Below, in pieces: positions 40,987-46,165 of a DNA stretch of 64,000 bases (the first letter of the stretch is position 1; the number at the start of each line of letters is the position of its first letter). Source of the stretch: a virus (taxonomy: Duplodnaviria; Caudoviricetes); IMG/VR virus record IMGVR_UViG_3300035661_000030, positions 1 through 64,000 of that record. The stretch is one strand, 5' to 3'. Both the position numbers and the translations under genes were made by a program. The notes beneath the pieces are model-generated. The model saw only the letters and a list, made by a program, of their open reading frames with translations. It was not told where the DNA came from and did no database searches.

Positions 40987-41062
40987 TGGTTGGGGCGCTA
41001 GGACTCGAACCTAGAACCGACAGGATCAAAACCTGTTGCTCTACCAATTGCGCTACACCCCA
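40987..41062 (-). tRNA. tRNA-Gln(TTG)
   Basis: Cloverleaf, acagg-ttTTGat-cctgt, encoded CCA. Confidence 0.95.
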
Positions 41063-41072
41063 TTAGTAATAA

Positions 41073-41116
41073 TGGTGGCCGTTTTAGATATCAATGATAT
41101 CTTAGGATAAACGGCC
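41073..41116 (-). ncRNA. 44-nt CCA-terminated minihelix
   Basis: GGCCGTTT/AAACGGCC stem + 7-bp hairpin + A-CCA. Confidence 0.45.
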
Positions 41117-41195
41117 AAACCTAACGGTTCTAGAACCGTGTGTCTTTTTTATAAAGCTAATTTGACCAAAGACCATGAAATATCAAATTAACTCC

Positions 41196-41586
41196 TGGCC
41201 GGATCTTCTTAAAGAACAAAACGGAAGCGTTGCATACTAGCTAGTGTAGCAACCTTTCTTTGTGGTGGCGAAGTGTACCGCTCCGTTATTCCACTCATAT
41301 CGCAGATCGACCCTTGTTTAAGGGGATCTTCCGTTTTGTTTTTTAAAAAGGATGGGGGTTTTAATCCACTTGTCCCTACCCCCAAAGGTCTTAAAGTGCG
41401 TGGACCTTACCCAAGTCATTACACTTCCGTTCGTCAGACTTGGAATTGAGAACGTGAAGTAAAATCTGCCAAATCAACATTAGCACCTATTCGACATACA
41501 GGAGTTTTTATGGCTCACTATGTCTACTCATTCGGTAGTTGATACGGATGACGTCTCTCTTTTGCGTAGGATAGAGAATTGGCAGA
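41196..41586 (-). ncRNA. Putative structured ncRNA(s), multi-stem
   Basis: Long closing stem around three hairpins; three hairpins with complementary loops; TCTGCCAA/TTGGCAGA-closed domain. Confidence 0.45.
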
Positions 41587-41587
41587 A

Positions 41588-41662
41588 TGGTAATCCCAAG
41601 GGGATTTGAACCCCTGTTCCCGCCGTGAAAGGGCAGTTTCCTAACCACTAGAAGATGGGATC
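41588..41662 (-). tRNA. tRNA-Glu(TTC)
   Basis: Cloverleaf, ctgcc-ctTTCac-ggcgg, CCA. Confidence 0.95.
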
Positions 41663-41799
41663 ACAACTATTCGGAGAAGGTGTAATCAATCCTTAACACC
41701 AGTCTGTTGACTTATCTCACGATAAGTCTCTTCTCCGAAAAACCAAGCTGCGATTACGCATATCGAGTCCTAGAATACGTCCATAGGACACTTGGTTAT

Positions 41800-41876
41800 T
41801 GGTGGAGCTGATGGGACTCGAACCCATGACCCACGGCTTAAAAGGCCGTTGCTACTACCAGCTGAGCTACAGCTCC
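41800..41876 (-). tRNA. tRNA-Lys(TTT)
   Basis: acggc-ctTTTaa-gccgt, CCA. Confidence 0.95.
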
Positions 41877-41890
41877 GTGCTCCTAATTAA

Positions 41891-41976
41891 TGGTCCTCGG
41901 GACCGGATTCGAACCGGTACGTCCTTTCGGACAGCGGATTTTAAGTCCGCGGCGTCTGCCGTTCCGCCACCCGAGG
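41891..41976 (-). tRNA. tRNA-Leu(TAA)
   Basis: gcgga-ctTAAaa-tccgc, long variable arm, CCA. Confidence 0.95.
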
Positions 41977-41980
41977 TAAA

Positions 41981-42128
41981 GTGCCCGAGTATTTGCATTT
42001 GCTCGGGTCTATCTTATTCTGGCTTAGAGTTGCAACTCTAAATGCACTTAGCCATATCCGGTTTCCGCAGGTCCGGCAACCTACCCCATCCAATATTTCA
42101 ACGCAGCCCGATGAGGTAGGCTTGGCGT
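41981..42128. repeat. ~148-nt structured element, copy 1
   Basis: About nine in ten positions identical to 42641-42787; compensatory change in one stem. Confidence 0.9.
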
Positions 42129-42134
42129 TGATAT

Positions 42135-42635
42135 CTGAAGTTTTTTGCCTATCTACTCGCTAGAATAGAATAGGTCTTACAGGCTAACTTCTTAACCCAT
42201 CAGTGAACCGCCACTGATAAGCGTTTCCTAGGGCCTTGTTATTAGGCGTCCCTAACTAAGCAAGTCCTAGCAACTAATTCAGTTTGCGAGACTGAATTAA
42301 TTGAGCCATATTTTCGATAAATCTATCCGCCGATAGACCTATCTATATATGGCTGTTGCAAGTTTAACGGGAATTCTTTAACCCGTAGTCTGTGGTAAGC
42401 AGACCAACGCCTTTTATGCGTTTTACTTGCTTTGTCCACCTAGTAGCGCGCTTGTCAACCCAACAAGCCCTAGCGGTGGCTCCCTCTTGTTTATTTGTGG
42501 GGAATCACAAGACCGTTATTCGATACGGTCAAACGCTTGATCTTCAGCATTCTCATAACCCCAATCAAGCTATTATGAGGGGAACGGTCATTCATCTACC
42601 GCCAAACACAGAGTTTTTGAAAAGAACTCTTCAAA
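42135..42635. ncRNA. Putative large multi-domain ncRNA between the two repeats
   Basis: More than a dozen hairpins, nested junctions, one pseudoknot; no credible ORF. Confidence 0.5.
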
Positions 42636-42640
42636 CTTTT

Positions 42641-42787
42641 GTGCCCGAGTATTTGCATTTGCTCGGGTCTATTCTTTCGGGCTTAGAGTTGCAACTCTAA
42701 ATGCACTTAGCCCTATCCGGTTTTTACAGGTCCGGCAACCTCCCTCATCTATATTTTCAACGCGGCCCGATGAGGTAGGCTTGGCGT
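42641..42787. repeat. ~147-nt structured element, copy 2
   Basis: See copy 1; offset 660 bp. Confidence 0.9.
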
Positions 42788-42797
42788 ATACAGCTTT

Positions 42798-42931
42798 GTT
42801 TACAAGCCGAATGATTACCCTTGGACTTTATTGCCAAAGGTAATCACACGTTCCCTGCTGACACAGGAGCCAACTATACTATTACGATGTCAGTCGTAAC
42901 AGCATTTCGTTGAACTTGAACACTTGTAAAC
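42798..42931 (-). ncRNA. Four-way-junction RNA with kissing loops
   Basis: 9-bp closing stem; loops CTGACA and TGTCAG complementary; two G-U pairs on the minus strand. Confidence 0.55.
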
Positions 42932-42955
42932 GCTGCATTTATTTTATAACAGAAA

Positions 42956-43219
42956 TTACTCTTTTTTTGCAACTTTGAACCAATACCGACGTGAACGATC
43001 AATAAAATCATTCCATTCTTTTTCAATTCGCATTGGGGGTTCCTGCATCGTCTCATTATTTAATCGAGCAATAGCGATCATCATGCCTTTCTTTTTATTG
43101 TAATTATCCCTCTTGTGACAAACAGAATATCCTGTATTTAATTCACCTTTTTCATTTAAATTTGAGAGCATGATCCCAATAGGATTCCCTCGCTTGTCTC
43201 TGATATACTGTTTAAGCAT
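42956..43219 (-). CDS. Conserved small phage protein within the tRNA cluster
   Basis: GGAG SD; GYSVCHKRD.YNKKKG..IA..R pattern. Confidence 0.75.
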   Translation of the reverse strand: MLKQYIRDKRGNPIGIMLSNLNEKGELNTGYSVCHKRDNYNKKKGMMIAIARLNNETMQEPPMRIEKEWNDFIDRSRRYWFKVAKKE

Positions 43220-43241
43220 ATTAAATACTCCTTAATAAGAT

Positions 43242-43316
43242 TGGTCCTCCTGCTAGGAATCGAACCTAGACCCGCGCCTTAGAAGGGCGCTGCTCAATCC
43301 ATTAAGCTACAGGAGG
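43242..43316 (-). tRNA. tRNA-Arg(TCT)
   Basis: gcgcc-ctTCTaa-ggcgc, CCA. Confidence 0.95.
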
Positions 43317-43371
43317 ATGTAATAGTATTGTTTTTTAGAGTATCGGTTAACCTATACACCGAAAGGTTATT

Positions 43372-43779
43372 TGGTGGACCTGGAGGGAGTCGAACCCTCG
43401 TCCAAGAAAAGCGCCCAAGGCAATTGTAGCAGCTTATCCTATTTAGTTACCTATATAGCCATAATAGGCAAAAAGCTATAAAGGTTTAATAGTATTTTTC
43501 AGATTGGATTTACTATCATTACCAATCCAAGTCTTATAACGGTTTTTCGAGCAAGTCTACTATTCCGTATTTAACGAGATCCATACTAAGACGATTTGGA
43601 TTACTCGTCCTCAATTAAGCCGCTTTAGCGAAAGCGAAAGCAGGGGCATTGAAGAAGCTGGCAACGAAAGTAAACACGTTGTTGGCATTTAGGTTTTAGA
43701 TGATTGATAAACCGGCCATCATCCTTCCGGTGCTGCTTGCTTATGAACTATACTTAACCTGTCGAAACCAGGCAGGCCC
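43372..43779 (-). ncRNA. ssrA: tmRNA; tag (A)ANNVFTFVASFFNAPAFAFAKAA* at 43686-43615
   Basis: 5' GGGCCUG...GGUUUCGAC; 3' T-arm GGUUCGACUCC and ACCA; G3-U70; tag ends in AA then TAA. Confidence 0.93.
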
Positions 43780-43805
43780 ATTTGTAAAACATTTCACTGA
43801 TTGAT

Positions 43806-43881
43806 TGGAGCCTATAGTCGGAATCGAACCAACGACCTACTGCTTACAAGGCAGTTGCTCTACCAACTGAGCTATATAGGC
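43806..43881 (-). tRNA. tRNA-Thr(TGT)
   Basis: actgc-ctTGTaa-gcagt, CCA. Confidence 0.95.
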
Positions 43882-44130
43882 GAAACGGCAGTTTAAGCAC
43901 AACTGCCAAGCCACTAATTTTTGTTCTTAAGATAAGTATTTGGTAAGTGATCCAAATTACTTTCCGCAATCGGTCAGTCAGGTTTCAGAGATACACTATG
44001 CGCTAAGGGTGGCCGATAACCATATAGCGTTTAAGTTTACCCTACCTTACAGTCATGACGTTTGGAGCTATTAAGGTGATAGCTTTAATCCAAATCGTTA
44101 CGGATTGGATACCGTATTCCTCGTTTTTAT

Positions 44131-44207
44131 TGGTCGGGGTAATAGGATTTGAACCTATGACCCTCTGCTCCCAAAGCAGATGCGCTACCAGGCTGCGCTA
44201 TACCCCG
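44131..44207 (-). tRNA. tRNA-Pro(TGG)
   Basis: tctgc-ttTGGga-gcaga, CCA. Confidence 0.95.
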
Positions 44208-44221
44208 ATTAGTTTATTTAA

Positions 44222-44295
44222 TGGAGCGAGATATCAGATTCGAACTGATTTCTTCAGCTTGGAAGGCTGAGGCACAACCCATATACCAATCTCGC
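44222..44295 (-). tRNA. tRNA-Gly(TCC)
   Basis: tcagc-ctTCCaa-gctga, CCA. Confidence 0.93.
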
Positions 44296-44305
44296 TTTTT
44301 ATGGA

Positions 44306-44408
44306 TGGTAGGTCCACTAGGATTCGAACCTAGAACATTCGGTAATCTGCCGACGCTCTTTCGAGTGGAGGGTATAAACCTCTTGTTTTACCGTTAAACT
44401 ATGGACCC
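44306..44408 (-). tRNA. Atypical 103-nt tRNA-Ile(TAT) with a 28-nt two-hairpin insertion
   Basis: Normal acceptor, D and T arms; gagg-ttTATac-cctc; insert ACTCGAAAGAGCGTCGGCAGATTACCGA. Confidence 0.75.
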
Positions 44409-44422
44409 ATTATTTCAATAAA

Positions 44423-44498
44423 TGGTGGGGACGGAGAGGCTCGAACTCCCGACATATTGCGTGTAAGGCAATCGCTCTACCAACTGAGCTACATCCCC
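44423..44498 (-). tRNA. tRNA-Val(TAC)
   Basis: attgc-ctTACac-gcaat, CCA. Confidence 0.95.
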
Positions 44499-44513
44499 GT
44501 TTAATCAAATTAA

Positions 44514-44589
44514 TGGTGGCCCCACACAGATTCGAACTGTGGACCAGTCGGTTATGAGCCGACAGCTCTGACCGCTGAGCTATAGGGCC
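44514..44589 (-). tRNA. tRNA(CAT), Ile2-like or elongator Met
   Basis: gtcgg-ctCATaa-ccgac; GGCCC acceptor start like Ile2; paired 1-72, so not an initiator. Confidence 0.9.
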
Positions 44590-44726
44590 AAAATATTACA
44601 TTCGATAGTTCTTTTTATTTAAGTTAATAATTTCTTGCTTTCCATTATAATAACCGATTTTGTAAATCACAAAAAATCCTATAAATCCTGTAATCATAAT
44701 TAAAATGTTCATCAATCTCCTTTAAA

Positions 44727-44818
44727 TGGCGGAAGGTGAGAGATTCGAACTCTCGGATAGGTGTTAACCCATCAACAGTTTTCAAGACTGGCCCATTAAA
44801 CCACTCTGGCAACCTTCC
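44727..44818 (-). tRNA. tRNA-Ser(TGA)
   Basis: cagt-ctTGAaa-actg, long variable arm, GCCA end. Confidence 0.95.
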
Positions 44819-44827
44819 GTTATAGAT

Positions 44828-44904
44828 TGGCTTCTATTGTTAGATTTGAACTAATAGCCTAGTGATTAACAGTCGTTCACTCCAACTAATTGAGCTAAAC
44901 GGGA
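44828..44904 (-). pseudogene. Degenerate tRNA-Asn(GTT)
   Basis: TAGCTCA, ctGTTaa, TTCAAAT and GCCA retained, but acceptor and anticodon stems are mismatched. Confidence 0.7.
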
Positions 44905-45211: not shown

Positions 45212-46165
45212 TTATATTTTGCATGTATTTTTTATTGCAATTAATCTTTCAAGTTTTCTAGATAATATTCCACAGTCTTTAGATTTAGATATTATAGCTT
45301 CAGCCAAAGCTAACGTTTTATCTATTTGCGTTGTTTGCGGATAATATAATATTGATAAATAATTTGATTTATCTGTATTTTTAGTATAAATATATTTAAA
45401 ATATTCTGAAAAATTATCTAACAATTGATTTGCAAATATTTCCGAAGCTGTACATACATTTATGTAAGGCTTCTGCCCTGGATATATTTTTGATACATAT
45501 CCATTACCTTCTATTGTACCTATTAAAAAATAAATATGTAATTCTTTTGGAATTAAATCAAATCTAATATTTAAAGAATATGATTTGTATTGTGTAATTC
45601 CAAATAATTTTAAATCTTCTCCAATTTCTTTGGACATTACATATGTTCTAAAGTTATCTTGTTCTTTATAATATGTTCCACCTAATTCTTCTATTACAAA
45701 ATCAATTAACTCTATATCTTTTGAACTAAATCTTATTCTATAATTACCACCTTTTATTTGTCGTATATCTCCATCCGTTGCAAGCAATCCTAACATTCTT
45801 GCTTTTTTTGGAGTTAAATTTTTAAAGTAATCATGATTAGCTATAATCTTATATTTTCTTTCTACTTTAATATTGTTTTTTTTAAGTACTAAACGAATAC
45901 ATGAATCTGACACGTTGTATTTTGAAGCAATTTCTTTAATTGTCATTTTTTCTATTTTATATAATTTTATAATATCTATTTTATCTAATTCAGAAATTTT
46001 AGTTAAAGCTTGAGCTATACCTTTGGCTGTATTATTTCTTCTATTTACTTTTGGTAGATTATATTTTTTTATTAATCGTGGAATTGACCATTTTGGAATA
46101 TTGTTTCTTGTAGCAATATCTGTCCAAGTTAATTCACTATTTAGATAATCCTCTTTAAATCCCAT
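45212..46165 (-). mobile_element. Free-standing LAGLIDADG homing endonuclease with N-terminal HTH-like segments
   Basis: RMLGLLATDGDI and YFLIGTIEGNGYV motifs; GGAGG SD. Confidence 0.85.

Follow-up and report, generated by a model that had tools for sequence, protein, structure and literature searches.

A pseudoknotted RNA module, present in two copies within the tRNA array of an uncultured large phage, whose predicted fold is kept by compensatory changes

Two copies of one folded module

The stretch analysed here (the window) comprises positions 1 to 64,000 of the IMG/VR record IMGVR_UViG_3300035661_000030 and belongs to a large phage. The minus strand of its tRNA array contains two copies, A and B, of an element of about 145 nt for which eight helices are predicted: helix PK1 crosses P1, P2b crosses P2a, and a bulge named J3 may pair with the loop of P4 (Table 1). 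This fold very probably exists and is new, its function being much less certain. A preliminary description of the window had reported two copies of ~148 nt lying 660 bp apart, and this was confirmed: they are direct repeats, about 90-93% identical, with a start-to-start offset of 659-660 nt, and on the plus strand their initial 32 nt are the same. With a covariance model each of them scored ~177 bits (E ~1e-50). The borders of the duplicated segment coincide exactly with those of the folded domain. Copy A differs from copy B at 15 positions, which lie chiefly in loops and linkers, as had also been claimed; to these comes one true compensatory pair in P3 (U-A vs G-C). The two 148-base repeats are genuine copies of one RNA module. 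Copy B is syntenic with the single copy of a diverged group of phages (L070, L075, L077, L079 and L127, hereafter the L077 type), since nhmmer aligned the leader and copy B of the window to the leader and module of L127 and L077.

Compensatory changes in a distant copy

Relatives of the module were reached through exact-pattern scans, contigs encoding homologues of a sigma-like protein, contigs encoding an 87-aa open reading frame (ORF) and a covariance model (R1). The copy of the L077 type, at 58% identity, was compared with copy A pair by pair. For this purpose, the eight helices were refitted to L077 by a script that allowed each of them to move within ±4 nt, and the same refit was applied to shuffled L077 sequences (n=2000) as a control. 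The model-derived alignment A7 was not used for pair counts, L077 being one column out of register there in five helices. After refitting, 41 of the 42 base pairs in the eight helices of L077 were standard; 19 of these pairs had changed on both sides with respect to copy A, one had changed on one side and 21 were unchanged. None of the 2000 shuffled sequences reached 41 pairs (mean 34.1, sd 1.7, maximum 40). At least one double change was found in each helix, that is, in P1a, P1b, PK1, P2a, P2b, P3, P3b and P4. Further compensation was observed among the close copies, in which a C-G pair of P4 is replaced by U-A in copy B of L066 and of L064, and a pair of P3 occurs as U-A, G-C or G-U.

These data bear on most of the structural claims of the preliminary description. 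Its pseudoknot 1 (P1 crossed by PK1) and its compact H-type pseudoknot 2 (AGGU/ACCU crossed by CCGG/CCGG) are both upheld by the compensatory changes in L077. The stem enclosing the palindrome (P3) does show the true compensatory change attributed to it, and the CCCGAG/CUCGGG hairpin (P4) is present and carries double changes in L077 in addition to the C-G to U-A replacement just mentioned. Covariation between copies and relatives, on which the description had made a function of the RNA depend, was found with the pair counts given above. These counts show that the module, an independently folding RNA domain, is preserved by compensatory change.

Minimum free energy (MFE) folding of the window copies yields nested helices, and the L077 copy folded alone in the same way recovers PK1, P3b and P4 (z = -3.9). 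A 12-bp MFE hairpin replacing P1 and P2a was considered and rejected, its extra pairs not being kept in L077; the pseudoknotted model is favoured for this reason. The RNA was assigned to the minus strand because its G-U pairs are compatible with that strand only and because the minus strand is the sense strand of the surrounding array of tRNA genes and transfer-messenger RNA (tmRNA). No conserved open frame was found in the module, where only short antisense ORFs occur. One-base indels among the module copies rule out a coding role, and frame-breaking indels were also found in the core RNA that lies between copies A and B.

The UUGCAA loop and the other UGCA sites

The module contains a perfect 18-bp DNA palindrome. 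The self-complementary UGCA had been reported to appear three times in it, and this holds in the window but not in the distant relative, where only the UUGCAA loop of P3b is kept. This loop is invariant, and its stem has changed at three of five pairs. Since UUGCAA is invariant while its stem covaries, a role of the palindromic loop in RNA-RNA pairing is plausible. The remaining two UGCA sites correspond to bulge J3 and to the P4 loop, and they are mutually complementary over 6 bp in the window. A U-to-A change in the P4 loop of L077 is matched there by a one-base deletion in J3, so that five contiguous pairs are available again. A third pseudoknot, formed by J3 and the P4 loop (J3-L4), is tentatively taken as probable. 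A similar hairpin, with GUUGCAAC at its centre, was seen in the contig L057.

Searches for related families

Searching Rfam 15 with cmscan, with the whole window at gathering scores and the region 41500-43300 at E<=10, gave only tRNAs, tmRNA and noise. The module was unmatched in the relatives as well (L077 at E<=5). The sensitivity of the search was considered adequate because it did recover a group I intron in L077 (Intron_gpI, positions 2258-2459, 47 bits, E 4e-10). This intron splits a tRNA-Leu(UAA) in its anticodon loop (L077:2235-2545), a gene which ARAGORN had missed. The covariance models of GOLLD and ROOL did not match the window region even at E<=10, and no match to the Rfam ribozymes (hammerhead, HDV-like, glmS, twister, pistol, hatchet and others) was obtained in the window at E<=10 or in L077 at E<=5. 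The description of the element as a structured RNA not previously described is therefore supported, both by these results and by its pseudoknots and hairpins with compensatory changes.

At the sequence level, a blastn search (word size 11) of 41977-43241 against 50,697 GenBank phage records, T4 relatives included, found no match. Exact patterns (the P4 hairpin, the 18-nt palindrome and a 26-mer of the core) revealed L018 as the sole relative in IMG/VR. The loop pattern GTTGCAAC...GCAAANGCAAATAC, scanned in IMG/VR and in 185,579 GTDB genomes, gave 38 new loci, none of which was full-length by the covariance model; the best score among them, 17 bits, was taken as chance. Another 79 loci, retrieved through patterns or anchors, gave no match to model R1, and in 14 loci anchored on the 87-aa ORF family the RNA was absent except in an already known phage. 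The contigs with sigma-like-protein homologues yielded L055, L057, L061, L121 and L124. Weak model matches in L057 (in the leader and at a GUUGCAAC hairpin) and L124 (a half-module before tRNA-Met) may be diverged relatives of the module and were considered too weak to count. Altogether, the module family seems to be limited to a single clade of uncultured phages, sampled from microbial mats, sediments and the like.

Predicted promoter, transcript and core RNA

A phage promoter is predicted ~150 nt upstream of copy B, immediately past the 87-aa ORF; a generic sigma-70 scan did not pick it up. The matching motif of the relatives is TGCAAA ... TGTTATAA(T/G)ATATATGGAG. The consensus TGCAAA, spacer, TGTTATAAT and then ATATATGGAG is repeated many times in these genomes, with five occurrences in a complete 157-kb relative, three in 20 kb of L057 and others in further related contigs, and it precedes protein genes as well as RNAs. 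We take this motif to be the phage's own promoter, probably read by the sigma factor and the fused beta/beta' RNA polymerase that these phages encode. Because the promoter lies upstream of copy B, both copies, the 512-nt RNA between them and tRNA-Leu are predicted to form one transcript, which would start near 42936 and run through a leader hairpin domain, copy B, a sub-module, the core, copy A, 4 nt and tRNA-Leu.

Folding of positions 42645 to 41977 (669 nt, the inter-copy RNA plus copy A) on the minus strand gave z = -8.7. Diverged versions of the core are conserved in L055 and L077 and show compensatory changes of their own. The intrinsic terminator scan reported the P4 hairpin on the plus (antisense) strand only and nothing terminator-like between the elements on the minus strand, where P4 is followed by CACUUUA in copy A and by CACAAAA in copy B; a U6 tract was found only after copy B of L066 and L064. 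Among the sequencing runs listed for the sequence there is no RNA run. Four DNA runs from microbial mat and sediment contain it, and their contigs break at the repeats without any joint spanning them, which makes them uninformative on expression or excision.

The sub-module (42539-42640, minus strand) can form an H-type pseudoknot of its own, CCCC/GGGG crossed by CUCAUAA/UUAUGAG, whose second stem is replaced in L066 (1090-1179) by ACACGA/UCGUGU. Relatives of this sub-module stand immediately 5' of tRNA-Ile in L077 (3901-4047) and of tRNA-Met in L055 (2439-2575) and also in L057. Several spacers of these tRNA arrays hold recurring knotted modules.

Table 1. Positions in the window of the module copies, the helices of copy A and the neighbouring features
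Feature	Positions	Strand	Remarks
Copy A of knotted module	41981..42128	-	ends 4 nt upstream of tRNA-Leu
Copy B of knotted module	42641..42787	-	helices as in copy A; between 5' leader domain and remaining leader RNA
P1a, copy A	42128-42125/42104-42101	-	helix
P1b, copy A	42122-42119/42108-42105	-	helix
PK1, copy A	42118-42110/42090-42082	-	pseudoknot helix
P2a, copy A	42082-42079/42072-42069	-	helix
P2b, copy A	42076-42073/42061-42058	-	crosses P2a
P3, copy A	42054-42050/42024-42020	-	helix
P3b, copy A	42040-42035/42030-42025	-	loop UUGCAA
P4, copy A	42007-42002/41989-41984	-	12-nt loop
J3-L4 pairing, copy A	bulge J3 ~42046-42041 with P4 loop ~41999-41994	-	candidate third pseudoknot
tRNA-Leu(UAA)	41891..41976	-	immediately 3' of copy A; acceptor stem shares six base pairs with helix P4
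Structured RNA between copies, ~510 nt	42132..42640	-	5' sub-module ~42640-42539 and core ~42538-42132
5' leader domain	42788..42936	-	homologous to L077/L127 leader hairpin domain
Predicted phage promoter	42943..42972	-	TTGCAA 42972-42967, 18-nt spacer, extended -10 TGTTATAAA 42951-42943
87-aa ORF	42956..43219	-	between tRNA-Arg and RNA promoter

Arrangement in relatives and origin of the duplication

Four more close copies (82-95% identity) were found in L018/L121 and in L064 and L066, the latter two from the same metagenome series. The number and position of the modules vary among these phages. In L018/L121 the promoter is followed by a different 5' segment (X), the core, one module and tRNA-Leu, the single copy being therefore 3' of the core. 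The L077 type, which includes one complete genome of 157,395 bp with terminal repeats, also has a single copy per phage, which is 5' in the order promoter, leader, module, core, a second core-like RNA and the intron-containing tRNA-Leu. L055 has no copy (promoter, hairpin, core, tRNA-Leu), and L066 and L064 have two. L057 has a short leader and a doubtful, diverged module before tRNA-Leu. After the tRNA-Leu of this contig there is ~1 kb of non-coding structured sequence (L057:4774-5835, minus strand), possibly another RNA gene or a tRNA that has been interrupted. It holds a GUUGCAAC-centred hairpin, a 3' end resembling a T-arm (GGTTCAAATCCGG ... CCA) and a AATGCAACGGTATTTGCATT hairpin that is repeated twice.

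In three related contigs, namely the window, L066 and L064, a direct copy is found on each side of an RNA. The upstream copy of L066 leads into U6 and a 12-nt stretch alignable with the tRNA-Leu 5' end, and this tRNA stump is fused directly to the first transcribed bases of an L018-type leader. Since the stump runs into a second leader, the duplication is most simply read as two cassettes of leader, module and tRNA-Leu joined head to tail by recombination. In addition, the copies are mosaic. In its 5' half, window copy A most resembles L066 copy B (94.6%), and window copy B, in the corresponding half, L066 copy A (94.7%). Halves have thus been exchanged between positions, and the copies recombine both between positions and between phages. 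The preliminary description had also offered the two copies as processing signals that excise the 500-nt RNA between them. This idea was not supported by the comparison, the same core being found with one copy, either 5' or 3', or with none. An obligatory pair of excision signals is unlikely because the flanking arrangement is not conserved and the copies recombine.

On the minus strand, the six base pairs of P4 (CCCGAG/CUCGGG, 41984-42007) recur in the acceptor stem of the tRNA-Leu next to it (41970-41976). In L066 copy B, P4 and the tRNA stump carry a matching G-to-A / C-to-U change. The identity between P4 and the acceptor stem could be a recombination microhomology or a functional mimic.

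Possible function of the module

We favour, with a probability of about 0.45 for the statement as a whole, that this is a stabilising, self-pairing structural module. It would act as RNA, forming a compact nuclease-resistant unit that stays with the processed leader or is released from it, and if RNase P cuts at tRNA-Leu, copy A would form the 3' end of the leader. The UUGCAA loop is the best functional lead, being the sole loop which is both invariant and self-complementary. It may pair with that of a second copy, either A with B in one transcript or in another molecule, and such pairing may stabilise or assemble the large leader RNA. Because the module tolerates a 5', 3', doubled or absent state, we infer that it is accessory to the core and does not belong to the fold of the latter.

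Several points weigh against this proposal. The module is carried by only two well-diverged lineages, plus the doubtful partial copy of L057, and in fitting the helices to L077 a shift of ±4 nt was allowed. The transcript, the RNA ends and the stability are all predictions from sequence. Furthermore, the 5' copy of L077 and the 3' copy of L018 cannot protect one and the same end, and protection alone would be no obvious reason for the conservation seen in junctions and loops. Finally, the palindromic loop could equally be a protein site or the partner of the P4 loop.

A proposal in two branches, that this new RNA knot (a) clamps the ends of a ~1-kb leader or multimerises through a UUGCAA kissing loop, or (b) cleaves itself as a new ribozyme, its tandem copies setting free a unit-length RNA, is doubtful to us as it stands.

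It is unlikely that the module is just an exonuclease-blocking knot, comparable to exoribonuclease-resistant RNAs (xrRNAs), which shields the leader or the pre-tRNA from 5'-3' or 3'-5' decay. The knotted, compact shape would suit such a role, as would the placement of the module, which can occupy either end of the core RNA and immediately precedes tRNA-Leu, where a cut by RNase P would make a 3' end; flavivirus xrRNAs are also duplicated in tandem. However, no Rfam xrRNA matched, and this explanation overlaps the stabilising, self-pairing module, from which it differs solely in omitting the RNA-RNA pairing.

At every module locus a phage promoter precedes the module and further structured RNA genes follow it, and these phages encode their own fused beta/beta' polymerase and a sigma factor beside the array. 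Both observations would agree with a polymerase-modifying antitermination RNA, like HK022 put or Bacillus EAR, that lets the phage polymerase read through the structured tRNA array. EAR is itself a pseudoknotted element of ~120 nt within an operon. This possibility was nevertheless judged rather unlikely: the module has no sequence or model similarity to the Rfam EAR or put families, L055 has the same operon without the module, and nothing ties the RNA to the polymerase.

The module could also be a self-cleaving ribozyme or processing signal, each copy cutting at a fixed site and releasing a 660-nt RNA, perhaps circularised. This we regard as improbable. Its compact, multiply pseudoknotted form and its size, about that of glmS-type ribozymes, are in keeping with the idea, and so are the exact match between duplicated segment and folded domain and the direct copies flanking an RNA in the window, L066 and L064. 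Against this stand the negative search with the Rfam ribozyme models at E<=10, the paired layout, which is not conserved (one or no copies with the same core in relatives), and the DNA-recombination signature borne by the duplication.

A ligand- or tRNA-sensing leader of the riboswitch kind, in which the P4 arm would alternate with the tRNA acceptor strand and so control maturation or transcription of tRNA-Leu, is quite improbable. The six acceptor base pairs repeated in the P4 stem of the window, the P4 change of L066 copy B (C-G to U-A) mirrored in its adjacent tRNA stump, and the hairpin plus U6 that ends copy B of L066 and L064 are what it would explain. However, the acceptor mimicry is absent in L018 and L057 and reaches four bases at most in L077, most copies are without a U-tract, the terminator scan matches the antisense strand only, and window copy B and the L077 module precede the core RNA, not a tRNA.

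A DNA-level element without RNA function (recombination site, operator palindrome or mobile repeat) would account for the 18-bp palindrome and for mosaic copies located at recombination junctions, but it is very improbable given the compensatory changes that keep eight RNA helices, crossing ones included, the one-strand G-U pairs, the palindrome half-sites that have changed with their symmetry kept, as those of a hairpin stem would, and the absence of terminal inverted repeats or target duplications.

Comparison with known systems

GOLLD and ROOL are self-associating ornate RNAs found by phage tRNA islands, and kissing loops drive the formation of their homo-oligomeric cages (PMC12286853). Pairing through kissing loops has been described in ROOL, GOLLD and OLE (PMC12286853). 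The preliminary description had likened the setting of the module to that of GOLLD and ROOL, and its position inside an array of 12-14 genes agrees with this. They share with the window RNA being encoded by phages or prophages near tRNA islands, being long, pseudoknot-rich and non-coding, and having both conserved and variable regions; the leader of the window, of ~960 nt, is of similar size to GOLLD and ROOL and has a conserved self-complementary loop. In contrast, its secondary structure is different and its unit is a 145-nt module of variable number and position. GOLLD and ROOL oligomerise, whereas assembly of the window RNA is hinted at solely by its UUGCAA loop, which is palindromic and conserved.

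RNA C and RNA D of T4 are small stable RNAs of the T4 tRNA region without an assigned role (PMC3014915). The module is of roughly equal size and, according to its predicted transcript, would likewise be transcribed with the phage tRNA cluster. In contrast, it has no sequence similarity to any GenBank phage, T4 relatives included (blastn), and the T4 RNAs are not known to be multiply pseudoknotted or duplicated. The pseudoknot arrays of tmRNA resemble the module in their consecutive H-type pseudoknots, and the phage tmRNA gene is only 600 nt away. However, the module has neither a tRNA-like domain nor a tag reading frame, and the matches of the tmRNA model and of ARAGORN are confined to 43372-43779. 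The xrRNAs and EAR/put are compact knotted cis elements inside long transcripts, sometimes duplicated, as the module is, but its architecture differs from theirs and their models do not match it. Large folded RNAs of phage tRNA islands are thus a known phenomenon; the fold of this module is new and lies outside the compared systems in sequence and fold.

Phage tRNA islands repeatedly harbour large folded RNAs, the cages of GOLLD and ROOL having been shown only recently. The present locus adds an unrelated fold, with covariation that is unusually clear given the small number of sequences. The locus is a natural experiment as well, in which the module is found at the 5' end, the 3' end, both ends or neither around one conserved core RNA, and a construct of 145 nt suffices to ask whether the module is a stability cap, a dimerisation handle or a processing signal. 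If kissing-loop assembly is true, the ornate phage RNAs that self-assemble would gain a third family, unrelated to the others. Moreover, a promoter consensus emerges from this locus for ~157-kb phages with their own fused RNA polymerase, a clade about which little is known.

The window and its tRNA array

The window is AT-rich (~33% GC) and contains tail genes and genes for a fused beta/beta' RNA polymerase, a sigma-like protein and ribonucleotide reductase. From 40987 to 44904 on the minus strand, ARAGORN and Rfam identified 12-14 tRNA genes and a tmRNA, and the sigma gene adjoins this array. Between tRNA-Arg (43242-43316) and tRNA-Leu(UAA) there are the 87-aa ORF and ~980 nt without a credible reading frame. 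Homologues of the 87-aa ORF occupy the equivalent place in L055, L057 and L077, which makes four diverged phages including the window; the family is also present in phage loci without the RNA, and no relative was detected in Pfam, PHROGs or PDB.

The tmRNA (43372-43779, minus strand) encodes the tag ANNVFTFVASFFNAPAFAFAKAA, and similar tmRNAs were found in L057 and L055. The tmRNA tags start with ANNV..., as cyanobacterial tags do; together with the microbial-mat origin of the samples, this suggests a cyanobacterial host. Finally, the tRNA array is bordered by a 317-aa HNH/endonuclease-like ORF (45212-46165, minus strand) that may be a mobile homing gene, since it is absent from this place in several relatives.
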